Origin: Vicinamibacterales bacterium
Lineage (GTDB): Bacteria; Acidobacteriota; Vicinamibacteria; Vicinamibacterales; UBA2999
Direction: 5' to 3'
Assembly: GCA_036005125.1 (NCBI GenBank)
Contig: DASYQV010000170.1
Location: 2,407 to 66,406 of the forward strand
Length of the DNA stretch: 64,000 nucleotides
In this document: positions 2,131 through 24,226 of the stretch, piece after piece
Layout: every line of letters begins with the position of its first letter
Numbering within the stretch: the stretch's first letter is position 1
Notes under the pieces: generated by a model
Told to the model about the DNA's origin: nothing
Seen by the model: only the letters and a program-made list of their open reading frames with translations
The model's database searches: none
Program-made: the position numbers and the translations under genes

Positions 2131-2162
2131 GTTGCCCGACAAGGGCGGATGGAAACCAGAAC

Positions 2163-3722: not shown

Positions 3723-3753
3723 CGAAACCTGCGTTTGCTAGAGATACTGTGCG

Positions 3754-3916: not shown

Positions 3917-4492
3917 CTACTCGGGAACATCTTCCCAGAGGAGGGACAGATCCAGATCGATTGCGTCAAACGGCTCCGCACGAACGACGGTGAGGCCAGA
4001 CCAGGTCGAGAGAATCATCCAGCGACCGCCTTCGAGACGGAGGACCTCGAGCGTCCGGGCGATCGGGTCGATCAACCAGGCGTGCGACACACCTTCGCGT
4101 GCATAAATCGGGAGCTTCTTGACACGGTCCATCCGTGCGGTCGACGGCGAGACGACCTCGCAGATCCAGTTTGGCGCCAGCGGAAAATACGCTTCCTCCG
4201 GGAGCCGCGGCATTCGTTCGCGTCGCCAGCCGGCGACATCCGGCACGAGGATATCGGCTCCGAGGTGCAGCTCGGGCTCGCCGAGGATTCGCCAACCTCC
4301 GGGACCGCTACGACCACGATCGAACGGGCCGTGCAACGCTCCAACAAGGCCTGAACTCGCCTCCGCATGCCGGGGTGCCGGACGCGGAGACGTGTAGAGC
4401 TCGCCGTCGAGAATCTCGGCCACGAGATGGTCGGGCACCTTCATGAGATCCTCATAGGTCGCCGGAGTGCGGGTCCGATCGGACTGCGCCAC
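3917..4492 (-). CDS. Uma2 family (DUF820) putative restriction-endonuclease-fold protein
   Basis: ATYEDLMKVPD...AEILDGELY, ILVPDVAGW, PNWICEVVSPST...D..KKLPIYAREGVSHAWLIDP. Start is taken at the GTG at 4492; ATG at 4444 or 4570 is also possible. Confidence 0.8.
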   Translation of the reverse strand: MAQSDRTRTPATYEDLMKVPDHLVAEILDGELYTSPRPAPRHAEASSGLVGALHGPFDRGRSGPGGWRILGEPELHLGADILVPDVAGWRRERMPRLPEEAYFPLAPNWICEVVSPSTARMDRVKKLPIYAREGVSHAWLIDPIARTLEVLRLEGGRWMILSTWSGLTVVRAEPFDAIDLDLSLLWEDVPE

Positions 4493-4527
4493 CCGGCGAG
4501 GATAGCACGCCAGAGTGATGGCACCGC

Positions 4528-6537: not shown

Positions 6538-6751
6538 GGTCAAAGGTGTAAGTCAAAGGTCCAGCTAAAAGGTATAAGGTTAGGTCCAAGGCAACAGTCG
6601 GATCCTCTTGCGAGACGGCTGCGGCACGTACGCTGCCTTTGCCCTTTGCCCCTTTGACCTTTGAACCTTTGCCCTTTGACCTCTGACCCTTGACCTTTGA
6701 CCTTTGACCCTTGACCTTTGACCTCTGACCCTTGACCTTTGACCTTTGACC
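6505..6751. repeat. Tandem-heptamer palindrome, GGTCAAA type, locus R1
   Basis: Left arm is (GGTCAAA/GGGCAAA/GGTAAGG...)n to ~6590. After a ~45-nt spacer the right arm is (TTTGCCC/TTTGACC/CTTGACC)n from 6635 to 6751. Confidence 0.95.
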
Positions 6752-6753
6752 TC

Positions 6754-6777
6754 AGGCCGCATCTAAAGATGCGGCCT
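6754..6777. repeat. AGGCCGCATCT-N-AGATGCGGCCT hairpin family copy
   Basis: AGGCCGCATCTAAAGATGCGGCCT. Related copies are at 31323-31437 and 55578-55600. Confidence 0.85.
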
Positions 6778-6824
6778 GCGTGCTATCGTAGATTCAGCTT
6801 GCCTGTCTGATGCGAACCTGAGCC

Positions 6825-7529
6825 ATGGTGCGATACTTCCCCATTGTGCTGACGCTGTGTCTTCTGCCGATGGCGGCCGCCGGGGTCCCCAACGCGCGTG
6901 TTTTGCGCGCTGGGGTGGAAGGCGCGCAGTCGAGGCCCGCTCCCGAAGCGCTCGCGCGCTCGCTGCAGCAGCGATACGAAGGAATCAAGGATTTCTCGGC
7001 TGATTTCGTCCACACGTACCGAGGCGGCGTCCTGCGACAGCAGGCCAAGGAGCAGGGCACGGTCACGGTGAAGAAGCCCGGCAAGATGCGCTGGAACTAC
7101 ACGACCCCCGAAAAGAAGATGTTCGTCTCCGACGGGGTCAAGATCTATTCCTACGTCCCGCAGGACAAGCAGGTGATGGTCGCGAAGGTCCCGTCCGCCG
7201 ACGAAGCGACCACGCCGGCGATGTTCCTCGCGGGAAAGGGTGATATCGCCAGGGACTTCAAGGCGAGCTACGCGGACGACAGGGCCTCGGGCGGTCTATA
7301 TGCGTTGAAGCTGGTGCCCCGCCGGCCGGAGCCGGAATACGAATCCCTCATTGTCATCGTGGATCCCCAGTCGCTCCAGATTCGCGCGCTCACGACATTC
7401 GACACGCAGGGAGGCGAGTCGACGTTCACGTTCAACAACATGAAGGAAAACCAGGGAGTGTCCGATAAGGAGTTCGCGTTCCGCATTCCGCGCGGCGTCG
7501 ACGTGATTACCGATGGCGCATCGAGGTGA
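6825..7529 (+). CDS. lolA: Outer-membrane lipoprotein carrier protein LolA
   Basis: Signal peptide, then LQQRYEGIKDFSADF...GTVTVKKPGKMRWNYTTPEKKMFVSDGVKIYSYVPQDKQV...LKLVPR...FTFNNMKEN, the LolA domain pattern. Confidence 0.85.
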   Translation: MVRYFPIVLTLCLLPMAAAGVPNARVLRAGVEGAQSRPAPEALARSLQQRYEGIKDFSADFVHTYRGGVLRQQAKEQGTVTVKKPGKMRWNYTTPEKKMFVSDGVKIYSYVPQDKQVMVAKVPSADEATTPAMFLAGKGDIARDFKASYADDRASGGLYALKLVPRRPEPEYESLIVIVDPQSLQIRALTTFDTQGGESTFTFNNMKENQGVSDKEFAFRIPRGVDVITDGASR

Positions 7530-9570
7530 TAGGACCGCTATGCGGTCTCTCATTGGGATTTTGTACGCTTTGCGCCGCACCCGCATAGCGGTCCTCGGCG
7601 CGCGAAGCGCGCCAAAAAGATACTGTCCAACCAGACAAGCGCTCTGCCGGGCCGGGGCCCCCAACGCGCGTTTCCCAAGTCGCGGTCGCTTGCGACCGCG
7701 ACCCAGCCAGCGCTGGTTGTGCGGTCCGCCATCGGCGGACCGCCGGGGTGGAGATGGCAAGGGCAGAGCGCTTGTCTGGTTCGGTCTGATCGTGCTCGTG
7801 GCGGCCACTCTGTCCGCCTGCGCGTCAGCAACGTCGATGCGCAACGGCCGCTTTGCCGAGCAGGGGCGGGACTACGATCGCGCGGTTATCGAGTACACCA
7901 AGGCCCTGCGGGAGCATCCCACAGACAGCAACGCCCGGCAGGCGCTCGAGCGGATGAAGTTGCGGGCGGCGCAGGAGCACTTCACCCGCGCGCGCCGCCT
8001 GGCCACCGCCGGCAATCTGGACGAGGCGCTGATCGAATACCAGCTCGCCGCGGAATTGAATCCAGACAACCCGGACATCGAGGACGCGGTTCGAACGATC
8101 CGTTCACAGCTTCGCAACAAGATTGCTATCGCGCGTGAGGGCAAGACGCAGCTCGAGTCGCTCATCGAGCGCTCGAAGCTGCTCGCGCCGCCCGGACTCG
8201 ACCTGCCTCCGGATGTCAAGCTGCCGGAGTCGCTGACGTTTCGCGACGCGGGCTCCCGGGACGTCTACACGGCAATGGCGCGGTTCGCGAACATCAACGT
8301 GGTGTTCGATCCGCAATTCCGCGATCAGCCGGTCACCGTGGACCTGCGCAACACGACGCTCGCCGATGCGCTGACGTCGGTCTCGACGGCCACGCGCAAC
8401 TTCTATCGCGTCACCGCCGCGCGCACGATCACGATCATCCCGGACACCCCGGCCAAGCGGCGTGAGTACGAGGAAGAGGTCGTCCGCACGTTCTATCTCA
8501 GCAACGCCGACCTGAAGGAAACCATCGACCTCCTGCGCATCGTCATCGATGCCCGCCGCATCGCGCCGATCGCGGCGACCAACGCGCTGACGATCAAGGA
8601 CACGCCCGAACGCGTGGACGCCGCGGCGCGCGTCATCGCGGCCATCGACAAGGCCCGGCCCGAGGTCGTGATCGAGGTCGAGCTGCTCGAGGTCGATCGC
8701 ACGCGGCTGCTCGAATACGGCCTGCAGCTCGCCTCACCGGGCTCCGCGGGCATCAATGGGGGGGCGGACGCGAACCGAAAAGACCTCACCCAGCACGACC
8801 TGACGAATCTGTCGCCGCGCGATATCTTCCTCACGAACCTGCCCGCTCTCTATTACCGGCTGCTGAAGCGCGACAGCAACACGCGCACGCTGGCGAACCC
8901 GCAGCTCCGCACATCCGAGGGAATGCCTGCCCGGGCGAGATTCGGCGAACGCGTTCCCGTACCCGTCACGACGTTCTCGCCGATTGCTGCCGGCGGCGTC
9001 CAGCAGCAGCCGATCACCTCGTTCAACTACGAGAACATCGGCGTGAACCTGGATATCACGCCGCGTACGCATCACGACGACCAGGTGTCGCTGTCGCTGA
9101 GGGTCGAGGTCAGCAGCATTTCCGGCGCGGGTTTCGGCGGGCTCCCGACGTTCGGCAATCGCGAGATCAACACCGTGATCCGGCTGCGCGACGGGGAAAC
9201 CAACATGCTCGCCGGCCTCATCAGAGACGATGAGCGGCGCGTGCTCGAGGGCATCCCGGGCCTGAGCGACCTTCCGCTGATCGGGCGGCTGTTCGCGTTC
9301 AACCACAAGGAGACGCAGGAAACCGATATCGTCCTCACGCTGACGCCGAGGATTATCCGCGTGCTGGAGCTGACCGAGGCCGACCTGCGGCCGTTCCGCG
9401 TGGGCCGCGAAAGCGGGGCGACGATCATCGATCTGCCCGCGCCGCCTCCTCCCCTGCCGCCGGGACCGACTCCGCCGCCCCCGAAGCCGCCCGACGATAC
9501 CGCGCCGGTGGCGCCGCTTCAGCCGGCGGTCCCCGTGAAACCCCCGCCGATTAAGCCCCCGGCTCGGTAG
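7513..9570 (+). CDS. Secretin (GspD/PilQ superfamily) with N-terminal lipobox and TPR region; start codon unresolved
   Basis: LIVLVAATLSAC lipobox at ~7790-7825, TPR-like YDRAVIEYTKAL..., secretin N-domains, and a C-terminal secretin motif GETNMLAGLIRDDERRVLEGIPGLSDLPLIGRLF...TDIVLTLTPRIIR. The 7513 coordinate is the maximal ORF, which reads through repeat copy 1. An in-frame TTG at 7717 (inside module D) is an alternative start. Confidence 0.8.
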   Translation: MAHRGDRTAMRSLIGILYALRRTRIAVLGARSAPKRYCPTRQALCRAGAPNARFPSRGRLRPRPSQRWLCGPPSADRRGGDGKGRALVWFGLIVLVAATLSACASATSMRNGRFAEQGRDYDRAVIEYTKALREHPTDSNARQALERMKLRAAQEHFTRARRLATAGNLDEALIEYQLAAELNPDNPDIEDAVRTIRSQLRNKIAIAREGKTQLESLIERSKLLAPPGLDLPPDVKLPESLTFRDAGSRDVYTAMARFANINVVFDPQFRDQPVTVDLRNTTLADALTSVSTATRNFYRVTAARTITIIPDTPAKRREYEEEVVRTFYLSNADLKETIDLLRIVIDARRIAPIAATNALTIKDTPERVDAAARVIAAIDKARPEVVIEVELLEVDRTRLLEYGLQLASPGSAGINGGADANRKDLTQHDLTNLSPRDIFLTNLPALYYRLLKRDSNTRTLANPQLRTSEGMPARARFGERVPVPVTTFSPIAAGGVQQQPITSFNYENIGVNLDITPRTHHDDQVSLSLRVEVSSISGAGFGGLPTFGNREINTVIRLRDGETNMLAGLIRDDERRVLEGIPGLSDLPLIGRLFAFNHKETQETDIVLTLTPRIIRVLELTEADLRPFRVGRESGATIIDLPAPPPPLPPGPTPPPPKPPDDTAPVAPLQPAVPVKPPPIKPPAR
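7531..7784. repeat. Modular MITE-like composite element, copy 1 (modules A-B-C with module D nested at 7654-7752)
   Basis: A: AGGACCGCTATGCGG...CCGCATAGCGGTCCT. B: GGCGCGCGAAGCGCGCC. C: CCAGACAAGCGCTCTGCC...GGCAGAGCGCTTGTCTGG. D (99 bp) lies in the C loop. Starts 2 nt after the lolA stop. Confidence 0.85.
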
Positions 9571-9593
9571 TCACTCGAACGCCCGAAGCCTGC

Positions 9594-10850
9594 TCACTCG
9601 ACCTTCGCGACCTTCGCTCCCAGCGCAAGCAGCCGGTCGACTATCTGGCTGTACCCGCGCTCCACGGTTTCGAGGGGCGCGACGCGCGTCTGTCCCTCGG
9701 CGGCGAGCCCCGCGGCAATCAGTGACATGCCCGACCGCAGGTCGCGGCTGTCGAGCACGCGCCCGCCTCGGAGCCTGGTCGGCCCCGTCACGATGATCCG
9801 GTGCGCGTCGGCGAGGAACAGATCGGCGCCCATGCCGCTCAGCTGCTCCAACGCAAAGAGCCGGAGCTCGTACATCCAGTCGTGCACGAGGGAGCGGCCT
9901 TCCGCCTGCGTCGCCAGCACCGTGACGAGACTCACGAGATCGCTCGGAAAGCCGGGCCACAGACCGGTCGTTATCCGTCGAACCGCCGTCGGCTTCGACG
10001 GTTTCACGACGAACGTGCCATCGTGCATGACGCACTCGATGCTCATCCGTTTGAGGACGGCCGCCACGACTTCCATGTCCTGGCTCCGCGCGCCGCCGAT
10101 GGCGATCTCCCCACCCGTGATGGCACCCACCACCGCCCAGCTTCCCGCCTCGATGTAGTCGCCGCCCAACCGGTGCTCCGCGCCGCGCAGCTTCGCGCCC
10201 GTGATGCGGATTGTGCCGCTGCCGGCGCCCGACACCTCGGCGCCCATCTTCTGCAGGAACTCACAGAGCTCGACGACGTGCGGCTCCTCGGCCGCGTGAC
10301 GGATTTCTGTCGTTCCGTCTGCTGTTGCCGCGGCCAGCAGCGCTGTCTCCGTGCCGGTGACCGACGCCTCGTACAGGTACATCGAGCATGCCTTGACCCC
10401 ATCCGGCATTTCCAGCACGTGGTCGGGACCCTTGACCTCGTGCGCGCCCATCGCGAACAGTGCTTCGAGGTGCGTGGCGATCGTCCGGCGGGCGGGAAAG
10501 TCGCCGCCCGGCGGCGCGATGTGGGCCTTCCCCGTCCTCGCCAGCAGCGGTCCGAGCAGCAGGACCGACCCGCGCAGCCGTCCGACGAGCGCCCGATCGG
10601 GAGTCGACTTGGTGACCTTCGGCGTCCTGACGCGCAACGTGGTACTGCCGATGCCTTCGACGTGAGCGCCCACGTCGAGAAGAAGCCGCGCCATGACCTC
10701 CACGTCCCCGATTCGCGGGACGTTCGTGAGCACGCACTCCTCCTCGGTGAGCAGACACGCGGCCAGTAACGGAAGCGCCGCGTTCTTGTTTCCTTCGACC
10801 GAGACGCGGCCTTCGAGTCGGTGCCCGCCTTCGATCAGCAATGTGGCCAT
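9594..10850 (-). CDS. murA: UDP-N-acetylglucosamine 1-carboxyvinyltransferase
   Basis: MATLLIEGGHRLEGRVSVEGNKNAALPLLAACLL...NVPRIGDV. Full-length 418 aa with the typical MurA pattern. Confidence 0.95.
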   Translation of the reverse strand: MATLLIEGGHRLEGRVSVEGNKNAALPLLAACLLTEEECVLTNVPRIGDVEVMARLLLDVGAHVEGIGSTTLRVRTPKVTKSTPDRALVGRLRGSVLLLGPLLARTGKAHIAPPGGDFPARRTIATHLEALFAMGAHEVKGPDHVLEMPDGVKACSMYLYEASVTGTETALLAAATADGTTEIRHAAEEPHVVELCEFLQKMGAEVSGAGSGTIRITGAKLRGAEHRLGGDYIEAGSWAVVGAITGGEIAIGGARSQDMEVVAAVLKRMSIECVMHDGTFVVKPSKPTAVRRITTGLWPGFPSDLVSLVTVLATQAEGRSLVHDWMYELRLFALEQLSGMGADLFLADAHRIIVTGPTRLRGGRVLDSRDLRSGMSLIAAGLAAEGQTRVAPLETVERGYSQIVDRLLALGAKVAKVE

Positions 10851-11930
10851 TCAGCTCTTCGCTTTCTGCAGAAAGTCGACGTCCTCGCTTCCCGTGAAAC
10901 CAATGAAGACCGGTTCCGGTCTCAGCCAGATGCCGAATCGATTGATGACCGAGCGCTTGATTTCCGCGGCGAGGCGGACGATCTCGCGTGCCGACGCGCC
11001 GCCGCGATTGATGATGGCCAGCGGATGCTTGGACGATACTCCCGCGCGGCCGTGAACGTACCCTTTGCCGAAACCGGCGCGCTCGATCAGCCACGCCGCC
11101 GGCACCTTCACGTTGCCATCGCTCATGGCGAATCCCGGCGCGCACAGCTCGAGCTGCGTCGAGGCCGGCATGATCGGATTCATGAAGAACGAGCCGACAC
11201 TGCGAGTGTCCGAATCGTTCTCGTCGAGCACCATTCCCTTCCCTCGTCGAATGGCGAGAATGGCGCCGCGGATATCGGCGACCGTCGGCTCGCGCAACCC
11301 TTGGCGATCGACGTACGCGATGACGTCGGGATACGTCAAGGTTGGCGACCCTTCGTGCATGCGAAACACGACGCGGCACACGGTGAACCGGCTCGCATCC
11401 TGCTTGAAGCGGCTGTGTCGATACGTGAACCCGCAGTCCCACCCGTCGATCTCCACGATCTCGTTGGTGTTGCGATCCACAACCGTCACCGACGCGATCG
11501 TGTTCGCCACTTCCTGCCCGTACGCCCCTACGTTCTGGATCGGCGTGCCGCCCGTACTGCCGGGGATACCGGACAGGCATTCCACGCCGGCCAACCGCCT
11601 GGCGACCGCCCGCGCCACGAGATTGTCCCAAGGCTCGCCTGCGCCGGCATCGAAGATCGTCTCTCCTTCGTCCTGGCGGGTTTCAATCCCGCAGATCGCG
11701 ACCTGGAGGACGAGACCGCTTACGCCCTCGTCGGCCACAACGAGATTGCTTCCGCCTCCCAGCACGAAGAGCGGATGGCCTCTGTCTGCCGCCCAGTGAT
11801 GAGCGGCGCGTACCTCGTCCACTGTCGTGGCTCGTACGAACCAACGGGCCGTGCCGCCAACGCCGAGCGTGGTCAGCCGGTCGAGCGCGACGTTCTCCTG
11901 CACATGCAGGGTCGCGTTACCGGACGGCAA
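10851..11930 (-). CDS. murB: UDP-N-acetylenolpyruvoylglucosamine reductase
   Basis: LTTLGVGGTARWFV...HPLFVLGGGSNLVVADEG...GAYGQEV...RHSRFK. Start is placed at the TTG at 11930, 8 nt after AGGAAGG. The longer track ORF overlaps the upstream gene extensively. Confidence 0.9.
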   Translation of the reverse strand: MPSGNATLHVQENVALDRLTTLGVGGTARWFVRATTVDEVRAAHHWAADRGHPLFVLGGGSNLVVADEGVSGLVLQVAICGIETRQDEGETIFDAGAGEPWDNLVARAVARRLAGVECLSGIPGSTGGTPIQNVGAYGQEVANTIASVTVVDRNTNEIVEIDGWDCGFTYRHSRFKQDASRFTVCRVVFRMHEGSPTLTYPDVIAYVDRQGLREPTVADIRGAILAIRRGKGMVLDENDSDTRSVGSFFMNPIMPASTQLELCAPGFAMSDGNVKVPAAWLIERAGFGKGYVHGRAGVSSKHPLAIINRGGASAREIVRLAAEIKRSVINRFGIWLRPEPVFIGFTGSEDVDFLQKAKS

Positions 11931-13563
11931 GGAGCTTACCTTCCTGCCCGATGAGGGCCGCGAGCGCTTCGCGCCGCGTGCACATCGTGAACTCCACAGA
12001 GTCACCGGGCGCCATCTGCGCCGCCAGCGGCAGATCGGCGGTGATGACGGTCGCAATCTGAGGGTATCCACCGGTCGTCTGCCGGTCTGCCATCAACAGG
12101 ATCGGATCGCCCGCGGGCGGAATCTGAATCCCACCCATGAACGTCGCGTCAGAAATCATTTCCAGGTCCGACGTACGCTCGATCGTGCCGCCGGCCAGGC
12201 GATAGGCCATCCGGTTCGACCTGGGCGTGACCGTGAACCGGCTGCGTTCGAGCACATGCCACGCCGCCGGCCCGAAGAAATCATCCTGCGGGCCTGCGAG
12301 GACGCGCAGCCGCGCACCGCCGGCCGACGGCGCCGCATCCTGCGGAGCTGCCACGGGTGGAGCCGCGGCCAGCGCGCCCAGGCCCAGGCGGTCGCCTGCG
12401 GCAAGCGGGCGGCCGTCGAAGCCACCCATCGCGCTCGGGACATGCGTCGCACGGCTCCCGAGCACGGGGCGAACGTCGATCCCTCCCGCCACGCCGACGT
12501 ACGCGCGCGCCCCCTGACGACGATCGCCAAAGCGCAGCACCGAGCCGGGCCGCGCACGGACGGGTACGTTCAGCTTCACCATCTCGCGGTCCAGCGTTGC
12601 CGAGAGATCCGCACCCGCAACCGCCAGCACGATTTCGCGCTCGATGCGCAACTCGGGTCCGAGCAGCGTCACCTCGATCGTGGCGGCCTCCGGATGGTTG
12701 CCCACCACGATGTTGGCGAGCCGATGCGACACCGGGTCCATCGGACCGGCAACCGGGACACCGCGATCCTGGTGCCCCCAGCGACCGAGATCCTGAATCG
12801 TGGTCAGCAGACCCGGGCGCACCACGGTGATCGCGGGCTCGGGTGGCCGCGCATCGCGTGCAGGCTGCGCCCGAAGCTCCGGGCCGGTGTCGGCCAGCGT
12901 CGGTACCGGAACGAAGCGGACCTCGTCGCCCGCCTCGAACAGCGACGGAGGCGTGCGCGCCTCGTCGAACAGTCTCACGCGCGTCCGGCCGATGATCTGC
13001 CACCCTCCTGGAATGTCCTGCGGATAAATTGCTGTCTGGCGCCCCGCGATGCCGACGGATCCCGAAAGCACCCTGGCGCGCGGCGTCGGATGACGAGGAG
13101 CCGCGATTGACTCGTCCACAGGTCCCATGTACGTGAAGCCGGGAACGAATCCCAGCATGAACACGCGGTACGTCGTCGACGCGTGCCGCCGGACGACCTC
13201 CTGCTCCGACATGGAGGCATATCTCGCGACGGCAGGCAGGTCTGGTCCGTTCTCCCCGCCATAGACAACCGGAACCTCTGTCAATCGCGACCGCTCGACC
13301 GAAGCTGGACGATCGGACGCATCCTCGAGCGAGGCCGTGACCGATTCGAGCATCGTATGAAGGGGATCGAAGAAGACCGCCACAGAACGGTACGTCGGAA
13401 CGACGTCGCGAACGCCTGGGAGGGCCGCCCGCCGAAGCGCGCTCGCGATCGCAATCGCCAGGGCATTGACCTCGGCATCGATTCTCGGTGCGAGCTCGAG
13501 CAGGAGCGCCGAATCGCCCGCTTCGCGGAGCCGGCGCGCCCATGTCACGCGATTCGCGTTCAC
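11917..13563 (-). CDS. Fused 5-oxoprolinase subunits PxpB-PxpC (KipI-KipA / allophanate hydrolase subunit 1+2 homologs)
   Basis: N-terminal half: GDSALLLEL...VVPTYRSVAVFFDP (PxpB/KipI type). C-terminal half: ITVVRPGLLTTIQDLGRWGHQDRGVPVAGPMD...ANIVVGN...TTGGYPQIATVI (PxpC/KipA type). The GTG start overlaps the mpl stop (GTGA). Confidence 0.85.
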   Translation of the reverse strand: MNANRVTWARRLREAGDSALLLELAPRIDAEVNALAIAIASALRRAALPGVRDVVPTYRSVAVFFDPLHTMLESVTASLEDASDRPASVERSRLTEVPVVYGGENGPDLPAVARYASMSEQEVVRRHASTTYRVFMLGFVPGFTYMGPVDESIAAPRHPTPRARVLSGSVGIAGRQTAIYPQDIPGGWQIIGRTRVRLFDEARTPPSLFEAGDEVRFVPVPTLADTGPELRAQPARDARPPEPAITVVRPGLLTTIQDLGRWGHQDRGVPVAGPMDPVSHRLANIVVGNHPEAATIEVTLLGPELRIEREIVLAVAGADLSATLDREMVKLNVPVRARPGSVLRFGDRRQGARAYVGVAGGIDVRPVLGSRATHVPSAMGGFDGRPLAAGDRLGLGALAAAPPVAAPQDAAPSAGGARLRVLAGPQDDFFGPAAWHVLERSRFTVTPRSNRMAYRLAGGTIERTSDLEMISDATFMGGIQIPPAGDPILLMADRQTTGGYPQIATVITADLPLAAQMAPGDSVEFTMCTRREALAALIGQEGKLLAVR

Positions 13564-14960
13564 GCCGCCAGCGCTCGCAGCAGCTTCTGATGGATGCCGC
13601 CGAAACCGCCGTTCGACATCAGCACGACGATGTCCCCTTCGCGATGCTCCCGGACGATCGTGCTGATGATGTCATCCACTTCGGGAATGTAACGGGCGTG
13701 CTGACCCCCCTTGCCGAGGTCGCTCACGAGCTGCTCGGCCGAGAGGCGCTGATCTTCGGGCAGCGTCGATCGGAACACGGCCGCGACGATGACCTCGTCT
13801 GCGGCGCCGAACGCGCGGGCAAAGTCGTTCTGAAAGACACGGCGGCACGACGAGGCCGAGCGCGGTTCGAATACCGCCCAGAGACGACGGCCGGCGTGGC
13901 CATGCCGCAATGCGTTCAGCGTTTCGTGCACGGCCGTCGGATGGTGCGCGAAGTCGTCGAGGATGGTCACGCCTCGTGCGGTGCCTACGACCTCGAGCCG
14001 GCGCTTGATGCCCTTGAACGCGCGCAGCCCGTCGGCAAGTGTCGCAGCGTCGAGGCCGACGTACGATCCCACCGCGATGGCGGCAAGCGCGTTCCTGACG
14101 TTATGCTCGCCAAGGAGCGGCGACCTGAAGCGTCCGAACGGCTCGCTTCGCCGCCGCACGCTGAACGAGGTCACGCCGTCGGCTGTCTCGACATCGCGTC
14201 CCTCCCAGTCCGCGCCGTCGGAGGTCCCGAACGTCTCGACCGGGCTCACCGCATGTTTCGCGAGCGCCGCGGCTTCGGGGCTGTCGGCGCCGAGCAGCAG
14301 CAGACCGTTCCGCGGCACGAGGTTCACGAGCCGGCGGAATGCGAGCCGGACCGCATCGAGATCCGCGTAGATGTCCGCGTGATCGAATTCGATGTTGTTG
14401 ATGACCGCCACATCAGGCAGGTACTTGAGGAACTTCGCCGTCTTGTCGAAGAACGCGCTGTCGTACTCGTCGCCCTCGATCACGAAGTCGCGCCCGGCGC
14501 CGACCCGATAGCTCGAGCCGTGCTCCCCGAGATTGAGTGCGATGCCGCCGACGAGCACGGTCGGATCGAGCCTGCCGTGTGTGAGCAGCCACCCGGTGAG
14601 CGACGTCGTCGTGGTCTTGCCGTGGGTGCCGGCCAGCACGATCGAGCGAGAGCCCCAGAGGAACTGATCGCGAATCGCTTCGGGGAGCGAACAGTAGCGG
14701 ATCTTCCGCTCGAGCACCGACTCCAGCTCGGGGTTGCCGCGGGAGATGGCGTTGCCGACGATCACGAGATCGAGGTCGCTGGTGACGTGATCGGCCTGGT
14801 AGCCGATCATGGTCCGGATTCCTTCCGCCTTGAGGAAGTCGCTCATCGGCGGATAGATGTTCTGGTCCGAACCGCGGACGTCATGCCCCTTGCGCTTGAG
14901 CAGCGCCGCCAGGGTGGCCATTGCCGTGCCGCACACGCCGATCAGATGAATGCGTTGCAT
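13560..14960 (-). CDS. mpl: UDP-N-acetylmuramate:L-alanyl-gamma-D-glutamyl-meso-DAP ligase (murein peptide ligase)
   Basis: MQRIHLIGVCGTAMATLAALLKRKGHDVRGSDQNIYPPMSDFL closely parallels the E. coli Mpl N-terminus. GTHGKTTTTS P-loop. Confidence 0.9.
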   Translation of the reverse strand: MQRIHLIGVCGTAMATLAALLKRKGHDVRGSDQNIYPPMSDFLKAEGIRTMIGYQADHVTSDLDLVIVGNAISRGNPELESVLERKIRYCSLPEAIRDQFLWGSRSIVLAGTHGKTTTTSLTGWLLTHGRLDPTVLVGGIALNLGEHGSSYRVGAGRDFVIEGDEYDSAFFDKTAKFLKYLPDVAVINNIEFDHADIYADLDAVRLAFRRLVNLVPRNGLLLLGADSPEAAALAKHAVSPVETFGTSDGADWEGRDVETADGVTSFSVRRRSEPFGRFRSPLLGEHNVRNALAAIAVGSYVGLDAATLADGLRAFKGIKRRLEVVGTARGVTILDDFAHHPTAVHETLNALRHGHAGRRLWAVFEPRSASSCRRVFQNDFARAFGAADEVIVAAVFRSTLPEDQRLSAEQLVSDLGKGGQHARYIPEVDDIISTIVREHREGDIVVLMSNGGFGGIHQKLLRALAA

Positions 14961-14978
14961 GCGACAATCGCGAATCGA

Positions 14979-15235
14979 AGGTCAAAGGGCAAAGGGCAAA
15001 GGGCAAAGGGCAAATCGAAGGTCAAAGGTCAAAGGTCAAAGGTCAGGTCAAAGGTATAGGTGCAGGTCATAGGTCCAGGTCATAGGTACAGGTACAGGTT
15101 CAGGTTCAGGTTCAGGACCTGCACCTATGACCTGCACCTATGACCTATACCTATACCCAAACCTCTACCTTCGACCTGTACCTTTGCCCTGATACCTTTG
15201 CCCTGACTTTTGACCTTTGACCTTTGACCTTTGAC
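14979..15235. repeat. Tandem-heptamer palindrome, GGTCAAA type, locus R2
   Basis: Left arm 14979-15117 grades from GGTCAAA/GGGCAAA units into GGTCATA/GGTGCA/GGTACA/GGTTCA units. Right arm 15118-15235 mirrors the same gradient as reverse complements (ACCTGC, TATGACC, TTTGCCC, TTTGACC). Confidence 0.95.
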
Positions 15236-15253
15236 TGAGCTCCGTTAAGCAAA

Positions 15254-16177
15254 CTACGTGACCGCCGCCTCTTCAATCACCAACCGCGGACGCAGGTTGC
15301 CGACTACTCGCGCGGTCACGCCAAGCGGCACCGTCCAGCAGGGCCCAGTGGTATGCCCCGAAGGGAATCCGAACAGGACGGGTCCCGGAAAACCATTCAA
15401 CGGACCGGAAATGGCGTCGCGCGCCGTGGGACATCCACCCGGCTCGTCGCAGCCGGGCATCTCGCCGAAGACGATCCCGCGGGCGCGTGACAACACGCCG
15501 GACAGTCGCAATTGCGTCAGCATCCGATCGAGGCGATATGGACGCTCGTTCACGTCCTCGAGAAACAGGATGCATCCATCCGGTGGATCGAATGCAAACG
15601 GGGTGCTGAAGGACGCGAGCAACTGCGTCAGGGTGCCGCCCACGAGCGGACCCGAGGCCTCGCCGGGCCGGATGCTCTCCAGCCCGTCGGGAGCCATCTC
15701 ACCCGGTGGCTCGACCGACGTCAGGCACCGGAGCCATGACGTTCGATCGAACCCGTCCTTGCCGCGCGCCAGCCGTCCTTCGAGCATCGGACCGTGGAAA
15801 GAAGCGATGCCGCAGCCGATCGTGAGCCACGTCAAGATGGATGTGTTGTCGCTGTAGCCGATGAAGGCCTTGGGCGTTCGTCGCAGATCGTCCGGTTCGA
15901 GCAGCGGCAGCAACTGAACGCTCCCGTAGCCGCCGCGCGCGGCGACGAGCGCAGCCACCGACGGATCGCGCCACGCCTCCAGGAAGGCGGACGCGCGCAT
16001 CTCCGGCGGACCGGAGACATATCCGGTGCGGGCAAACACGGATTCGTCCCACACCGGCTCGAAGCCCTGCGCGCGCAACTCGTCGACGCCGCGATCGAAT
16101 TCGTCCCTGGCAAACGGGCTCGCCGGCGACACGACCGCTATGCGGTCGCCGGGCCTGAGCGCGCGCGGTTTCAGCAT
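15254..16177 (-). CDS. ldcA: Muramoyltetrapeptide LD-carboxypeptidase (peptidase S66)
   Basis: LRPGDRIAVVSPASP...GYVSG....RA..F......V.A....RGGYGS, plus a GYSD serine motif and a C-terminal FGFPSGH motif. Confidence 0.9.
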   Translation of the reverse strand: MLKPRALRPGDRIAVVSPASPFARDEFDRGVDELRAQGFEPVWDESVFARTGYVSGPPEMRASAFLEAWRDPSVAALVAARGGYGSVQLLPLLEPDDLRRTPKAFIGYSDNTSILTWLTIGCGIASFHGPMLEGRLARGKDGFDRTSWLRCLTSVEPPGEMAPDGLESIRPGEASGPLVGGTLTQLLASFSTPFAFDPPDGCILFLEDVNERPYRLDRMLTQLRLSGVLSRARGIVFGEMPGCDEPGGCPTARDAISGPLNGFPGPVLFGFPSGHTTGPCWTVPLGVTARVVGNLRPRLVIEEAAVT

Positions 16178-16181: not shown

Positions 16182-17267
16182 TTAAAGAAAACGGCTCATC
16201 TCGTCGGCGACACGGCGATGCTCGTCGCAGCCGAGGATCGCCCGGAGCGGCGTGCGTCCGGCGGCAACTGGGACGGCAAGGAACCGCTCCTTCGCGCGGC
16301 GATGCCGGGCCAGCGCGTCTTCCACTCTCTTGGTCGGCAGCCGGCGGTCCTCGGCCGCATGGATCACGGCTTCGAGCGTCGCGGCCTGCAGATCGACGTT
16401 GCCGCTGCAGATCAGAAGCCCGTCGCAGCCCGCGGCGAGCGCCTGGACGCCGGCGTCAGGGACGGTATAGCGTCCCGAGATCGCCTTCATCTCGAGATCG
16501 TCGCCGAGGATGACGCCGTCGAACCCCAACTCTTCGCGCAACAGGTCGCGCGTAATCCGAGGCGAGAGCGTCGCCGGGCGCTCCTCGTCAAAGGCCGGCA
16601 CGAGCACGTGTGCGGTCATCATGAACGCGACGTCCGCCTCGATCGCCGCGCGAAACGGCACGAATTCGACGCGGCGGAGCCGGTCTGGTGAATGCTCGAC
16701 CACCGGGAGATCCAGGTGCGAGTCAACCGAGGTGTCGCCGTGGCCTGGAAAATGTTTGCCGCACGCCGCCATGCCGTTGTCCTGCATCGACCGGACGATG
16801 ACCGCGCCGAGCCGTGCGACCGTGTCGGCGTCTTCGGCCAGCGCGCGATCGCCGATCACAGGGTTCTTTGGATTCGTGTGGATGTCGAGCACGGGCGCGT
16901 AGTCGAGCGTGATTCCGACGGCCCGCAGCTCTGTCGCCAGCGCCTTGGCGAACCGGCGCGCCAGACCGGTATCGCCGCTCCGGCCGAGCACGGCCATCGG
17001 CGGCCATTCGGTGAACGGCGCGCGCAGGCGCGCAACACGTCCGCCTTCCTGGTCCACGCTCACCCACAGCGGTGTGTCAGCGGCCAGCGTCTGCAGGTCG
17101 TGCGACAGCTCCGCCACCTGTTCGGGCGCCTCGATGTTGCGCGCGAAGAGGATGATCCCGCCGAGCTGGAACTCCTTCGCGAGCGAGCGGATTTCGGGTG
17201 TGATCGTCGTTCCCGGCAGGCTTCCGATGAGCAGCCGACCTATGTCGCGCCGAAGGGATGAAGCCAT
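16182..17267 (-). CDS. nagZ: Beta-N-acetylhexosaminidase (GH3)
   Basis: GGIILFARNI, VSVDQEGGRVARL and KHFPGHGDTSVDSHLDLP motifs. Confidence 0.9.
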   Translation of the reverse strand: MASSLRRDIGRLLIGSLPGTTITPEIRSLAKEFQLGGIILFARNIEAPEQVAELSHDLQTLAADTPLWVSVDQEGGRVARLRAPFTEWPPMAVLGRSGDTGLARRFAKALATELRAVGITLDYAPVLDIHTNPKNPVIGDRALAEDADTVARLGAVIVRSMQDNGMAACGKHFPGHGDTSVDSHLDLPVVEHSPDRLRRVEFVPFRAAIEADVAFMMTAHVLVPAFDEERPATLSPRITRDLLREELGFDGVILGDDLEMKAISGRYTVPDAGVQALAAGCDGLLICSGNVDLQAATLEAVIHAAEDRRLPTKRVEDALARHRRAKERFLAVPVAAGRTPLRAILGCDEHRRVADEMSRFL

Positions 17268-17291: not shown

Positions 17292-17388
17292 TTCTCGGTT
17301 CTGTGTTCAACCTTCTCAGTTCGTGTTCACCTTCTGAGTTCGGTTCAGGTTCGGGCTTCTGTCTTCGGTTCAGCGTTCGGTTCTGGCT
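17292..17388. repeat. GTTC-rich period-7 tract in the nagZ / GHMP-kinase divergent spacer
   Basis: TCGGTTC TGTGTTC AACCTTC TCAGTTC ... TCGGTTC AGCGTTC GGTTCTG. Single arm with imperfect units. Confidence 0.5.
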
Positions 17389-20615: not shown

Positions 20616-22400
20616 ATGCGTCTCCTCGCCGTGCTCGCGTTCGTCGCCGCGATATGGGCGCTCCTTGTCCGGCTGACTGGCGGCTTCGTCTTCTCGGTGG
20701 CCGGCGTACAGATCTCCTCGACCGATCCGATCCGCCCGCTCGTCGCAGCCCTCATTGCCATCGCTGCGTACGCCGTCCTGTCGGCCCTCGCGGGACGGCA
20801 TCCAGGTCTGTCGGCCTTGACGCGTCGCGTCGGTCCGCGCGGGCTTGCCGCCGTTCTCGCCCTCGGAAGCGTCGTCACCGCGCTGAGCCACGCCTCATGG
20901 ACGGCAGGTGGAGCGGACGAGTACTCGTACGTGAGCCAGGCGGATTTGTGGTTGCAACGGAAGCTCACTGTGCCGATGCCGATCGCGACGGCTGTCCCCT
21001 GGCCGGATGGGCTCGCGACGTTCACGCCGCTCGGCTACGGGCGCCCGGCGGAGGGTGCCGCGATCGCACCGGTGACCGGCCCCGGGCTCCCGTTGATGAT
21101 GGCCGCGCTGAAATCGGTGGCCGGTCACTGTGCGGCGTTCTGGATCGTGCCGCTGACGGCGGGCCTGCTCGTGTGGGCAACCTTCGCGTTGGGCCGCAAG
21201 GCGGGATCCGATGTCATCGCCTTGGGCGCGGCATGGCTCGTCGCCACGAGCCCGACGGTTCTCGCCATGGCGAAGTCGCCAATGAGCGACATCCCTGCGG
21301 CCGCGTTCTGGACCCAGGCAGCCGCGTGGGTTGTGGGCGCGTCGCTGCGGGCATCGATCGCGGCGGGTCTCGCGGCATCGATGGCGGTGCTCATCAGGCC
21401 GAATCTTGCACCGCTGGCGGCGGTGATGGCTGTGTGGCTCTTGTGGCGCGACCGTTCACCTGCTCGCGCGGTCGCGTTCGTGTGCGGGGTACTGCCCGGC
21501 TGTCTTGCGGTGGCGTTGTTGAACAACGTTTTGTACGGCTCCCCGTTCTCGTCCGGGTACGGAGATCTGAACAGTCTGTTATCGGTGGCGCACATCCCGG
21601 CCAATCTCGCTCGGTACGGCCGATGGCTGATCGAAACGCAGACGCCGCTGGCGGTTGCCGGGATGCTTGCGCTGGCCACGCCTACGCGCGTGGTCTGGCC
21701 GACGGACGACGCCCGACGCGCCGCCTTTCTGCTCGCGTCGATCACCGTTGTCGTCTGGGCCATGTACTGCGTCTACATCGCGTTCGACGCCTGGTGGTTT
21801 CTGCGTTTCCTCCTCCCATGCTGGGCGGCTATCAGCATCGGCACCGCTGCCCTGGTTGTCCGCCTCGGCGAATGGACAGGAGGGGGACAACGCGTGGCGG
21901 TTCTTGCCCTGATTGCGCTCGGACTCTACGCGGTCGTCACAGCGATTCGCCATGACGTGTTCCCCGCCGGCGAGGGCGATCGCCGGTACGCGACCATCGC
22001 GAGCCTCGTCGAGCGCACGACCGAACCTTCCAGCGTCATCCTCACGTCGCAGCATTCGGGGTCGATCCGCTACTACGCAGGCCGCTTGACCCTTCGATTC
22101 GACCTGCTCGATCCGGCGTGGCTCGACCGGGCCATTGCATGGCTGGACCAGCAGGGACGACGTCCTTACATTCTCGTCGAGGACTGGGAGATGAAGCCGT
22201 TCGAAGAGCGCTTCGCGGAACGGAACGCGCTCGGGCGCCTCGCACTTGCGCCCGTGCTTGCCTACCGCGCATACCGCATTCCCGGCACGATCTACTTGTT
22301 CGATCCGCGTCGCCCTGAAGGTCCGACCTTGGAACCGCCGCCCGTGCGGGATCCACGACCCCGGTGCGTGGCCCCGGCCGCCGAACCAGCGCCACGCTGA
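20616..22400 (+). CDS. Polytopic membrane glycosyltransferase, GT-C fold (ArnT/PMT, GT39/83-like)
   Basis: About 12 TM helices. First periplasmic loop carries ADEYSY (DE motif). Soluble C-terminal domain. The TGA stop is embedded in the first GATTCTT repeat unit. Confidence 0.7.
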   Translation: MRLLAVLAFVAAIWALLVRLTGGFVFSVAGVQISSTDPIRPLVAALIAIAAYAVLSALAGRHPGLSALTRRVGPRGLAAVLALGSVVTALSHASWTAGGADEYSYVSQADLWLQRKLTVPMPIATAVPWPDGLATFTPLGYGRPAEGAAIAPVTGPGLPLMMAALKSVAGHCAAFWIVPLTAGLLVWATFALGRKAGSDVIALGAAWLVATSPTVLAMAKSPMSDIPAAAFWTQAAAWVVGASLRASIAAGLAASMAVLIRPNLAPLAAVMAVWLLWRDRSPARAVAFVCGVLPGCLAVALLNNVLYGSPFSSGYGDLNSLLSVAHIPANLARYGRWLIETQTPLAVAGMLALATPTRVVWPTDDARRAAFLLASITVVVWAMYCVYIAFDAWWFLRFLLPCWAAISIGTAALVVRLGEWTGGGQRVAVLALIALGLYAVVTAIRHDVFPAGEGDRRYATIASLVERTTEPSSVILTSQHSGSIRYYAGRLTLRFDLLDPAWLDRAIAWLDQQGRRPYILVEDWEMKPFEERFAERNALGRLALAPVLAYRAYRIPGTIYLFDPRRPEGPTLEPPPVRDPRPRCVAPAAEPAPR

Positions 22401-22469
22401 TTCTTGATTGGATTCATGATTCCAATCGCAAATCATGAATCATGAATCACGAATCATGAATCATGAATC
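22399..22469. repeat. Tandem-heptamer palindrome, GATTYGT type, locus H1
   Basis: Left arm GATTCTTGATTGGATTCATGATTCC. Right arm AATCGCAAATCATGAATCATGAATCACGAATCATGAATCATGAATCG. Confidence 0.9.
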
Positions 22470-23237: not shown

Positions 23238-23364
23238 CCTGATTCACGGGCGATTCTTGATTCTTGATTCTTGATTCATGATTGACCCGCCAACCAAATC
23301 AGGAATCAGGAATCAGGAATCAGGAATCAGGAATCAGGAATCGGGAATCAGGAATCAGGAATCA
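23238..23364. repeat. Tandem-heptamer palindrome, GATTCTT / AATCAGG type, locus H2
   Basis: (GATTCTT)x3-GATTCATGATT, a 14-nt spacer, then (AATCAGG)x10 with one AATCGGG variant. Lies between convergent genes. The minus-gene TGA (23362-23364) is inside the last unit. Confidence 0.95.
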
Positions 23365-24139: not shown

Positions 24140-24226
24140 TGATTCGTGATTTGTGATTCATGACTCGTGATTGGCGCTCGGTACGAGGCTCGGGATCCGG
24201 AATCGCGAACCGCGAATCACGAATCG
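24140..24226. repeat. Tandem-heptamer palindrome, GATTYGT type, locus H3
   Basis: Left arm TGATTCGTGATTTGTGATTCATGACTCGTGATTGG. Right arm CCGGAATCGCGAACCGCGAATCACGAATCG. Confidence 0.9.

Follow-up and report, generated by a model that had tools for sequence, protein, structure and literature searches.

The spacer between ldcA and mpl in a genome of the Vicinamibacterales holds, at positions 14979–15235 of the 64,000-nt stretch of DNA that was analysed (the window), an imperfect palindrome of ~257 bp built of GGT-anchored units of six or seven nucleotides. It is probably a hypermutable palindromic simple-sequence repeat (SSR), in which slippage alters the length and inversion within the palindrome keeps the symmetry. 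The locus appears to be one copy of a genome-wide family of palindromic SSRs that settled at gene junctions of one Vicinamibacteria lineage.

The outer units of the palindrome are GGTCAAA/GGGCAAA heptamers, GGTATA/GGTCATA/GGTGCA units lie deeper, and GGTACA/GGTTCA hexamers make up the apex (Table 1). Tandem Repeats Finder (TRF) counts 16.7 period-7 copies in the left arm and 10.3 in the right arm, with the inner units being partly hexamers. The palindrome, first reported in a preliminary description made from the sequence, is real: the arms decompose into units, the inverted-repeat pairs are 84–100% complementary, and the folds of both strands are far below those of shuffled sequences. Computational folding of both strands, which that description had proposed, yields for RNA one strong hairpin of ~107–113 bp from either strand (−152.6 kcal/mol, z = −13.0, for the plus strand; −166.0 kcal/mol, z = −14.0, for the minus strand), and none of 200 shuffles reaches the native energy. 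The DNA fold has a z of −12.7.

Table 1. Features of the ldcA–mpl junction and GGTCAAA-family arrays elsewhere in the window
Feature	Position	Strand	Remarks
mpl	13560–14960	−	UDP-N-acetylmuramate:L-Ala-gamma-D-Glu-meso-DAP ligase, downstream gene; TIGR01081, 415 bits, above curated cut-off
GATT-type heptamer remnant (GATTCGCGATTGTCGC)	14961–14978	−	directly upstream of the mpl ATG
Left arm	14979–15111	+ (3′ arm of the minus-strand mRNA)	unit decomposition, from outside to apex: GGTCAAA, GGGCAAA ×4, TCGAA punctuation, GGTCAAA ×3–4, GGTATA, GGTGCA, GGTCATA, GGTCCA, GGTCATA, GGTACA ×2, GGTTCA ×3
GGGCAAA ×4 block	14986–15014	+	G3-N4 ×4 quadruplex-type motif, mRNA template strand
Hairpin tip	15068–15128 (approximate)		~60 nt; inverted among alleles
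Right arm	15112–15235	+ (5′ arm of the mRNA)	unit decomposition, from apex outward: (TGCACC TATGACC) ×2, TATACC ×2, heterogeneous stretch, TTTGCCC ×2 interleaved, (C)TTTGAC ×4
Unique linker, 18 nt	15236–15253	−	ldcA stop codon to first repeat unit; mRNA sense TTTGCTTAACGGAGCTCA
ldcA	15254–16177	−	muramoyltetrapeptide carboxypeptidase (Peptidase_S66), upstream gene
GGTCAAA-family palindrome	6504–6752		unequal arms, ~8.7 and ~16.4 units, around a unique ~50-nt centre
GGTCAAA-family palindrome	29009–29089		fills the rplS–rnhB spacer
One-armed GGTCAAA array	55108–55170	+	begins at the groEL stop codon; then a separate GC-rich hairpin

As had been described, the ldcA–mpl junction is the sole long gap in the co-directional series nagZ-ldcA/mpl-pxpBC-murB-murA. 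It spans 293 nt, while nagZ and ldcA are 4 nt apart, mpl overlaps the next gene, and the genes further downstream overlap or abut (seen in the near-identical contig L081). If nagZ, ldcA and mpl are co-transcribed, as is likely, their mRNA should carry a hairpin of ~110 bp. On this mRNA the hairpin is followed by UUCGAUUCGCGAUUGUCGC-AUG, with no U-tract. A consensus scan of positions 14700–15500 finds neither an intrinsic terminator nor a promoter on either strand, and a search of the whole window with Rfam covariance models at the gathering threshold gives a tRNA at 378–450 as the sole match. Metatranscriptome contigs cover the junction too thinly to judge processing, with mpl at a depth of about 2 and ldcA uncovered. 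Two element classes were considered and rejected. A MITE would not have plain repeat units for ends, as found here, and no direct repeat flanks the palindrome, with the caveat that the 0–3 nt site in relatives precludes rigorous scoring of a duplication. A CRISPR array does not fit an array that has no spacers, defined ends or target-site duplication.

The preliminary description held that the two arms pair unit by unit, even as the unit sequence drifts. The mirrored order stands: a global alignment of the left arm and the reverse-complemented right arm reaches a score of 58, above the 37.7 ± 7.1 (maximum 59) obtained in 300 shuffles of the right-arm unit order. The exact pairing of every unit does not stand. 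Each GGGCAAA unit of the outer ×4 block has one mismatch to the GGTCAAA-type unit that it faces, the apex hexamers (GGTACA ×2 and GGTTCA ×3) have no mirror copies in the opposite arm, and the two GGGCAAA units of that arm are found at a depth unlike that of the ×4 block. The native fold energy (−140.3) is not beyond chance when compared with that of arms with shuffled unit order (−129.5 ± 9.7); because all units have the GGT/ACC anchor in common, any order pairs nearly as well as the native one. Selection on pairing is not needed to explain the strong fold, since arms with shuffled order fold about equally.

Six distinct full-length alleles of the palindrome, with flanks 97–100% identical to the window, were recovered; the population data are short-read metagenome assemblies throughout. 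The window allele is not an assembly artefact, as an independent assembly (L083) has a 100% identical spacer. Logan contigs (k = 31) break inside the arrays, and contig #13 of X2 locally confirms the tip orientation of the window. The alleles differ by one-arm unit indels in homogeneous tracts, by one deletion between CCTTCGATT direct repeats, by unmirrored point variants (e.g. CATGACC units with no GGTCATG partner) and by one inversion of the ~60-nt tip. The copy number of the GGGCAAA block is 0–4; the heterogeneous middle of the 5′ mRNA arm is invariant. No compensatory base-pair change is found among the six alleles. All of them hold a strong hairpin (−149 to −178 kcal/mol, 114–125 base pairs). 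The palindrome at 6504–6752 behaves likewise between strains: one arm has 16–17 units in the window strain vs 4–5 in another strain, and the other arm is unchanged. Independent evolution of the arms in related genomes, which the preliminary description had named as the observation that would speak against a maintained hairpin, is thus largely what the alleles of these two loci display.

The window, L082 and L083 carry the tip segment in one orientation and L081, L084, L206 and L169 in the other, with exact matches to the window antisense strand at 126–170 of L081 (23 + 32 nt) and 158–197 of L084 (40 nt). Both orientations occur in at least three independent assemblies each. The inverted repeat at the breakpoint is only ~15 nt long, shorter than any assembly k-mer, so the inversion junctions must exist in the reads. 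The inversion turned part of a one-arm (TGCACC TATGACC)n tract into (GGTCATA GGTGCA)2 on the other arm. It moved half of the tract across and thereby created much of the mirrored unit pattern. The proposed origin by inverted duplication of an array that was already heterogeneous comes close to the data. Across the window, eight hairpins fold better in the sense and three in the antisense orientation, but at the ldcA–mpl locus the better-folding strand switches with the inversion. For this reason a strand-specific G-U signature was rejected as evidence of selection at the RNA level.

The changes in length are whole-unit gains and losses that affect one arm at a time, and slipped-strand mispairing is their probable cause. 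Arm symmetry would be restored by DNA-level events inside the palindrome, of which the tip inversion is an observed case; recombination or replication template switching between the inverted arms may have produced it. Inversion and symmetrised arms are the expected outcome of either process when the two arms of a palindrome are not perfectly matched. Inversion carries expanded units to the opposite arm as their complement, so mirrored gradients can form with no selection on base pairs. Most of what is known about quasipalindrome correction and flip-flop inversion comes from reporter assays, plasmids and viral telomeres. Unlike these cases, the tip inversion is a natural polymorphism in a chromosomal repeat.

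The ldcA–mpl junction acquired the element after the lineage had diverged from relatives with 85% Mpl identity. In the latter (L232, L233 and P0002) ldcA and mpl overlap or abut with no array, and in L001–L008 (65–77% Mpl identity) they overlap or are at most a few nucleotides apart, again with no array. The syntenic 21-kb locus of L232 has short spacers and is almost free of heptamer arrays. It contains an incipient array of 2.9 CGGAACG units where the window has an expanded array of complementary units, which fits local growth. The 95% relative L231 carries a hairpin of a different unit family, (TGATTTG)n...(CAAATCA)n, at the ldcA–mpl junction. The GATT-type remnant next to mpl, in its L206 version (GATTTGTGATTGTCGC), agrees at 15 of 16 positions with the end of this hairpin's 5′ arm.

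The three further GGTCAAA loci of the preliminary description, two palindromes and a one-armed array, are present in the window (Table 1). The palindrome at 6504 contains the end of an upstream TMEM260-like ORF, which terminates within the array. Because a separate GC-rich hairpin follows the arrays at 6504 and 55108, the array is not itself the terminator there. The layout of an array, a centre and a complementary array recurs, with several unit families, in about 15 intergenic spacers of the window. TRF finds 20 period-7 arrays in these 64 kb vs 15 in about 700 kb of other genomes. In soil metagenomes, GGTCAAA arms reach roughly 50–300 times the depth of their flanks, and array words are abundant in metatranscriptomes. 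A G-rich 5′ arm was tried as a general rule and dropped: it is found in 12 of 15 window hairpins and in only two of four independent non-GGTCAAA pairs elsewhere.

In the first alternative to the SSR interpretation, the ~110-bp mRNA hairpin is a selected RNA element, kept to set the expression of nagZ-ldcA vs mpl-pxpBC-murB-murA by acting as a 3′-exonuclease barrier, an RNase III site, a factor-independent attenuator or a ribosome-stalling element just after the stop codon, much as REP elements of E. coli are described to act. The mRNA-strand fold (−166 kcal/mol, z = −14) and the 114–125 base pairs present in every allele agree with such a role, and the persistence of a strong hairpin in all alleles counts against the slippage account. 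The position of the arrays points the same way. About half of 40 metagenomic loci have an array start at most 10 nt from the upstream stop codon, which could reflect function and is likewise a point against slippage. The array behind groEL is transcribed, as RNA contig X25 #11 extends into it from the gene. Of the one-armed arrays, 15 read GGUCAAA on the sense strand of the upstream gene vs 5 on the antisense strand. However, no relative with 85% Mpl identity or less has the element, the two genes being overlapping and coupled there, and in the 95% relative a different unit family takes its place. The alleles lack compensatory changes, shuffling the unit order hardly alters the fold energy, and the better-folding strand depends on the orientation of the tip. 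There is no U-tract terminator, promoter consensus or Rfam match, and the arrays at 6504 and 55108 are followed by separate GC-rich hairpins. We thus consider a selected RNA unlikely. Of the two origins offered in the preliminary description, a hairpin under selection is not supported, given the one-arm changes, the absence of compensation, the relatives with no array and the replacement of the family in L231.

The second alternative is a mobile or enzyme-serviced element, i.e. heptamer palindromes that are copied and pasted into gene junctions or existing hairpin tips by a putative nuclease, transposase or polymerase, or by recombination with other copies, each unit family being an element lineage. 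A small set of unit families recurs across many loci, in very high copy number. Their polarity is fixed: about 16 GGTCAAA-family loci read 5′-(GGTCAAA)n...(TTTGACC)n-3′ with none in the opposite orientation, and the GATT family has one polarity at nine of its nine window loci. Recurrent families and fixed polarity are not predicted by local slippage combined with random inverted duplication; they count against the slippage account and hint at copy-and-paste spread or at a constraint. A bidirectional terminator, with an A-rich 5′ arm and a U-rich 3′ arm, was considered as the reason for the GGTCAAA polarity and rejected. It fails as a general account because the arms of the GATT family, found in the same genomic contexts, are of opposite composition. 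Further points in favour of mobility are the two families at the ldcA–mpl junction of sister lineages, with a GATT-type remnant beside the GGTCAAA palindrome, and the nested palindromes of L166, L091 and L136, in which one unit family is found within another. Against mobility, the copies share the repeat unit only; their centres, ends and array boundaries vary at every locus, and no conserved termini, target-site duplication, conserved core or loop are found among the copies compared. The incipient array of L232 fits local growth, and every difference observed between alleles is a local event. Spread by such an agent is accordingly quite improbable.

A bolder proposal, to which we give little credence, is that the vicinamibacterial heptamer palindromes are distinct self-renewing non-coding elements. 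Their families would be lineages of fixed polarity that colonise junctions, displace one another at a given site, build up layer by layer from the tip and stay symmetric through flip-flop inversion. If this were true, it would require either an enzyme responsible for their formation or spread, or a selective filter (e.g. transcription polarity) on the orientation that survives.

It is very improbable that the palindrome is a DNA-level site, whose units or cruciform bind a nucleoid, gyrase-like or replication protein or whose GGGCAAA ×4 block forms a G-quadruplex: a very stable DNA hairpin is predicted, the block has the G3-N4 ×4 motif and Xanthomonas heptamers form G-quadruplexes in vitro (PMC4692102), but near-identical strains have anywhere from 0 to 4 copies of the block, and unit families vary between loci and, at the same site, between sister lineages.

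The inverted pairs of GGGAATC heptamers in Xanthomonas are the nearest precedent, and the palindrome appears to be of a kind already described there. In X. campestris and X. axonopodis, 70–75 copies consist of two convergent GGGAATC arrays capable of forming a stem-loop (Rehm et al. 2015, PMC4692102). Their length varies between close relatives, and they are not linked to insertion sequences (PMC4692102). Tandem heptamers in intergenic DNA of a high-GC bacterium are common to both systems; the window palindrome has at least 3–4 tandem heptamers and convergent arrays with a stem-loop, and it is intergenic and multicopy. Some window families (AGGAATC, CGAATCA) also share the GAATC core of the Xanthomonas unit. 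Unlike in Xanthomonas, the host is an acidobacterium with GGTCAAA as the main unit, one genome contains several unit families, and the copy described here is much longer (257 bp), with 6- and 7-nt units in a layered gradient. Only the GGGCAAA ×4 block has the G-tracts of a Xanthomonas-type quadruplex, GGTCAAA having no G3 run. Most window units have no G-tract, so the quadruplex idea is not transferable. The tip inversion, the replacement of one family by another at the same site and the fixed polarity are features of the window element that are undescribed for Xanthomonas.

The functional analogy that we favour is with the REP/BIME elements of enterobacteria and pseudomonads, which are abundant, transcribed, intergenic hairpin repeats in 3′ UTRs or between cistrons. 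These elements shield upstream mRNA from 3′ exonucleases and, near a stop codon, can affect translation; BIMEs also bind IHF and gyrase. REPs are single imperfect palindromes of about 20–40 nt with a conserved sequence and a link to RAYT transposases. The window element differs from this short conserved palindrome in that it consists of paired tandem arrays with no conserved core. Effects of its hairpin on the mRNA are likely to be incidental, as in REP/BIME. The hairpin would break the ancestral translational coupling of ldcA and mpl and would serve as a 3′-exonuclease barrier or an RNase III substrate. We do not think that it is a dedicated regulator.

One unit of the cyanobacterial STRR is TTGGTCA, with a GGTCA core in common with GGTCAAA. 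The STRR and the TAACTGA repeats of Beggiatoaceae (PMC4679880) resemble the window family in that specific heptamers occur in tandem in intergenic DNA at many loci. In contrast to the window family, they are mostly one-armed direct arrays of 2–6 units, often located directly upstream of start codons. Inverted heptamer pairs are rare among them, with one in the Beggiatoaceae genome and only a few in Nostoc (PMC4679880). Literature searches turned up no earlier account of heptamer arrays from Acidobacteria or Vicinamibacteria.

Among the long simple-sequence repeats of bacterial genomes, heptamers have been reported to be the most over-represented. The window adds a soil phylum to the heptamer-rich lineages, which include cyanobacteria, Xanthomonas and Beggiatoaceae. 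The arrays have a practical effect as well, since they break short-read assemblies of abundant soil Acidobacteriota. Long stable intergenic hairpins in these genomes should not be taken for regulatory RNAs by default. The natural alleles of near-identical strains, lacking in earlier reports, reveal the ways in which such palindromes change: one arm at a time gains or loses whole units, an inversion of the tip makes the arms symmetric again, and one family replaces another at a single junction. Together they provide a concrete, testable path by which a tandem array may become a long mirrored palindrome with no selection on the hairpin.

Between ldcA and mpl lies a palindromic element made of two simple-sequence arrays, hypervariable and specific to this lineage. 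Its arms mutate independently by whole units, its tip inverts and its site is not conserved. Its left arm, read on the + strand from the outside inwards, consists of GGTCAAA, GGGCAAA x4, a TCGAA punctuation, GGTCAAA x3-4, GGTATA, GGTGCA, GGTCATA, GGTCCA, GGTCATA, GGTACA x2 and GGTTCA x3. The right arm, from the apex outwards, is composed of (TGCACC TATGACC) x2, TATACC x2, a heterogeneous stretch, TTTGCCC x2 and four TTTGAC-type units. Each strand of this 257-bp imperfect palindrome folds into a single long hairpin. The RNA folds have energies of −152.6 kcal/mol for the + strand (107 pairs, z = −13.0) and −166.0 kcal/mol for the − strand (113 pairs, z = −14.0), with none of 200 shuffles as stable as the native sequence on either strand; the + strand DNA fold gives −85.3 kcal/mol (z = −12.7). 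The unit decomposition and the folds bear out the palindrome of heptamer-type units seen in the preliminary description as highly non-random, and the other three GGTCAAA loci named there were all found.

The proposal that the arms pair unit by unit stands in part. When the right-arm units were permuted 300 times and the arm-to-arm alignment and folding rescored, the native alignment score (58) was higher than nearly all shuffled scores (37.7 ± 7.1, maximum 59), but the folding energy was not better than that of shuffled orders (−140.3 vs −129.5 ± 9.7). The outer GGGCAAA x4 block lies opposite GGTCAAA-type units with one mismatch per unit, and the apex hexamers have no mirror copies on the opposite arm. 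The mirroring of the units is genuine but not strict, and a strong hairpin forms whatever their order, as every unit has the GGT/ACC anchor.

Features of the window and their positions (gene calls outside the target palindrome are crude)
Feature	Position	Strand	Description
tRNA gene	378-450		Sole Rfam match in the whole window
TMEM260-like ORF	4528-6537		Membrane protein; 3' end (6504-6537) enters GGTCAAA array
GGTCAAA locus	6504-6752		Palindrome
mpl	13560-14960	minus	Followed by a fused pxpB/C-type gene, then murB, murA
Target palindrome	14979-15235		ldcA-mpl spacer
GGGCAAA x4 block	14986-15014	plus	G3-N4 x4 G-quadruplex-type motif on the mRNA template strand; 0-4 copies among near-identical strains
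ldcA	15254-16177	minus	
nagZ	16182-17267	minus	
GTTCGG/GGTTCA-type array	17292-17383		One-armed, about 110 nt, 6-nt units; divergent nagZ/GHMP-kinase spacer
GATTCNN/GAATCNN loci	22399-22469, 23252-23364, 24140-24226, 28272-28367		
Further GATTCNN/GAATCNN hairpins	37384-37407, 38448-38572, 42792-42927, 51721-51823		
GGTCAAA locus	29009-29089		rplS-rnhB spacer
ATCAGGA x10 array	33011-33168		Pairs, across a structured centre, with a short CTCCTA-type array; transcription of the + strand would give CAGGAAU in RNA; many GGA motifs, resembling CsrA/RsmA-binding sRNAs, but flanking genes on minus strand
Longer-unit palindrome	44808-44983		Left, 22-mers containing GCCACGAAG x2; right, 9-13-mers containing CTTCGTGGC x4; arrays flank a GC-rich central hairpin between divergent genes
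11-nt tandem repeat	45996-46040		CGGGGTCAGAC x4, one-armed, intergenic spacer
GGTCAAA array	55108-55170		One-armed, after groEL
1035-aa ORF	56290-59397		
21/42-nt tandem repeat	58484-58644		CCAACGAGGAGCTCCACTCCA-like, in frame in the 1035-aa ORF; coding, unrelated to the intergenic arrays

Judged by its Mpl relatives, the window (65% GC) belongs to Vicinamibacteria (Acidobacteriota subdivision 6), with best genome matches at 77% amino-acid identity. Its 64 kb contain 20 non-overlapping period-7 arrays (TRF) vs 15 in about 700 kb from 80 loci of other bacteria. Folding of the array-bearing spacers reveals about 15 intergenic hairpins built on one plan: array X, a centre and the reverse complement of X. 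The units belong to the GGTCAAA family (four loci), the GATTCNN/GAATCNN family (about nine loci), AGGAATC/GGAGTC and GGCTCNG, and some are longer (as at 44808-44983). GGTCAAA arm words reach a depth of 2,000-12,000 in soil metagenomes vs about 37 on the flanking genes, and the unit is therefore extremely abundant in those soil communities.

The array does split a tight operon at one junction. Within the nagZ-ldcA-mpl-pxpBC run, ldcA and mpl are 293 nt apart and the remaining two junctions measure +4 and −4 nt; genes further downstream overlap or abut, as read in the near-identical contig L081. A scan of the ldcA-mpl spacer found no promoter or terminator consensus and, since the operon is co-directional, the array is probably transcribed. 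The ldcA-mpl mRNA would then probably carry a hairpin of about 110 bp. A metatranscriptome contig spans the 3' end of groEL into the array at 55108, and RNA libraries are rich in words from the arrays; metatranscriptome coverage at ldcA-mpl is thin.

Exact-protein look-ups and a pattern scan of metagenomes, all of them short-read assemblies, yielded six distinct full-length spacer alleles of 254-313 nt with flanks 97.2-100% identical to the window: that of the window itself (shared by contig L083) and those of contigs L082, L081, L084, L206 and L169. A further, partial allele (L214) is more diverged. In the 5' arm of the mRNA sense, the heterogeneous middle is identical in all alleles. Copy-number changes are confined to homogeneous tracts (GGTCAAA, GGTATA, GGTACA, (TGCACC TATGACC), TTTGACC and TTTGCCC) and affect one arm at a time. 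L206 and L169 have lost the outer TTTGCCC block by deletion between a pair of CCTTCGATT direct repeats. Sister loci behave similarly: at 6504-6752, the window strain and another strain have the same left arm but 16-17 and 4-5 units, respectively, in the right one, and the rplS-rnhB hairpin shows single-unit changes between strains. Point variants are unmirrored, CATGACC units having spread within one arm with no GGTCATG on the other. The comparison across near-identical strains shows arms that change independently, and all alleles retain a strong hairpin (−149 to −178 kcal/mol, 114-125 pairs).

The hairpin tip, about 60 nt long, has one orientation in the window, L082 and L083 and the inverse one in L081, L084, L206 and L169. 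Positions 126-170 of L081 match the antisense strand of the window exactly over 23 + 32 nt, and positions 158-197 of L084 do so over 40 nt. The inversion is considered real: each orientation is present in at least three independent assemblies, that of the window has the support of a Logan contig of 90 nt from another run, and the inverted repeat at the breakpoints (GGTATAGGTATAGGT / ACCTATGACC...), at about 15 nt, is much shorter than assembly k-mers, so the junction words must exist in reads. More distant strains have the L081 orientation, and hence that of the window is derived. The inversion turned part of a (TGCACC TATGACC)n tract, expanded on one arm, into (GGTCATA GGTGCA)2 on the opposite arm, which are exactly the mirrored variants noticed in the preliminary description. 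The better-folding strand switches with it (sense −176 and antisense −158 in the window; −149 and −163 in L081).

Inverted duplication of an already heterogeneous array, one of the two readings suggested initially, comes close to these data, but the allele series refines it to slippage plus tip inversion. Slipped-strand mispairing would change the tract lengths, and the centre would flip when the inverted arms recombine or when replication switches template from one to the other. A flipped centre would move expansions of one arm onto the other and keep the palindrome without selection on base pairs.

Several regularities lie outside this explanation; the elements may instead have spread by copy-and-paste or be serviced by an enzyme, or selection may filter their orientation. 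First, a few unit families serve very many loci. Second, polarity is fixed: the order is always 5'-(GGTCAAA)n ... (TTTGACC)n-3' at about 16 loci in the window and metagenome contigs, with no case of the opposite order in a search able to detect it, and 5'-GATT ... AATC-3' at 9/9 loci of the GATT family in the window. A palindrome is identical on both strands, and neither transcription nor replication direction can therefore account for this polarity. A G-rich 5' arm was not adopted as a general rule, since it holds for 12/15 window hairpins and only 2/4 independent pairs of other families. Third, crude ORF calling on 40 high-GC metagenomic loci puts the array start ≤10 nt from the stop codon of the upstream gene in about half of them; read in that gene's sense, the array is GGUCAAA in 15 cases vs UUUGACC in 5. 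All three frames of the GGTCAAA strand are free of stop codons, and all three of the TTTGACC strand contain TGA. The array-encoded tail of the TMEM260-like ORF reads ...VGQRSKGKGQR*, its stop made by the degenerate unit GGTAAGG. Fourth, palindromes are layered or compound in four metagenome contigs (L166, L091, L136 and L146), the first three having one family nested within another: AGGTTCG-type arms lie outside GGTCAAA arms in L166, a GGCTCAG array is central within a GGTCAAA hairpin in L091, and L146 (52% GC) has GGTCAAA/AGTCAAA arrays of up to 245 nt and several complementary arrays.

Exact (GGTCAAA)4 arrays in metagenome contigs L086-L205 fall into GC classes of 0.35-0.48, about 0.52-0.55 and 0.58-0.71, so the unit is not confined to Vicinamibacteria. 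Low-GC copies are one-armed and some adjoin A-rich tracts; they may thus be eukaryotic.

The other initial reading is selection on the hairpin. In eight Vicinamibacteria/Acidobacteria genomes with Mpl identities of 65-77%, the stop codon of ldcA and the start of mpl overlap or are no more than a few nt apart, and three closer relatives, from contigs with closer Mpl homologues (L232, L233 and P0002; 85%), have an overlap or a 3-nt gap. The syntenic 21-kb block of L232 has spacers of −20 to 169 nt and almost no heptamer arrays, with 31 nt at the site of the window's 287-nt palindrome (6504-6752). Its nagZ-kinase spacer carries a 2.9-unit CGGAACG proto-array (L232 7844-7863), complementary to the units at the matching window site. 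The one relative at 95% Mpl identity (L231; flanks 87-90% identical in nucleotides) has a 114-nt ldcA-mpl spacer (L231 741-854), the hairpin of which is built from another unit family, (TGATTTG)n ... (CAAATCA)n. A GATT-type remnant persists in the window lineage immediately before the mpl ATG; its L206 version, GATTTGTGATTGTCGC, agrees with the end of the L231 5' arm at 15/16 positions. Absence from the 65-85% relatives and the different family in L231 indicate that the junction opened recently and was occupied by two repeat families. With a junction that is not conserved and arms that mutate independently, selection on the hairpin is not supported.

Unrelated heptamer arrays are found directly upstream of mpl elsewhere: AAGGATG/CATCCTT palindromes in a Pyrinomonadaceae MAG (L014 3900-3990 and 5406-5498), and AGTAGCC then CCCCTAG arrays in a MAG labelled Deltaproteobacteria (L028 3868-3993).

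The target has no defined ends or target duplication of a MITE, no U-tract of an intrinsic terminator (consensus scan) and no Rfam family match (whole-window search). Among long simple-sequence repeats in bacteria, heptamers are reported to be the most over-represented (work cited in PMC4679880 and PMC4692102), and those of cyanobacteria and Beggiatoaceae are mostly one-armed (PMC4679880). A literature search found no published report of heptamer arrays in Acidobacteria. Among published cases, the GGGAATC repeat of Xanthomonas campestris and X. axonopodis comes closest, with about 185 mostly intergenic arrays per genome, 70-75 of them in convergent inverted pairs able to make stem-loops; array lengths vary with the species, and the arrays are not linked to mobile elements and have no known function (PMC4692102). 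The target has the structural features of these pairs except the G-tract/quadruplex feature, and the GAATC core of the window's GATTCNN/GAATCNN family is common to both. In function it would be most like REP/BIME, as an analogy; it lacks their defining conserved core.

Repeats of this kind are already known and probably not regulatory. New and testable here are the series of natural alleles, the flip-flopping tip, the fixed polarity and the finding that two families have succeeded each other at a single junction. For the host lineage, the ancestral coupling of ldcA and mpl via overlapping stop and start codons would have been lost, and the hairpin is expected to have REP/BIME-like side effects at the RNA level, for example by blocking exonucleases or by attracting RNase III, rather than to be a dedicated switch.
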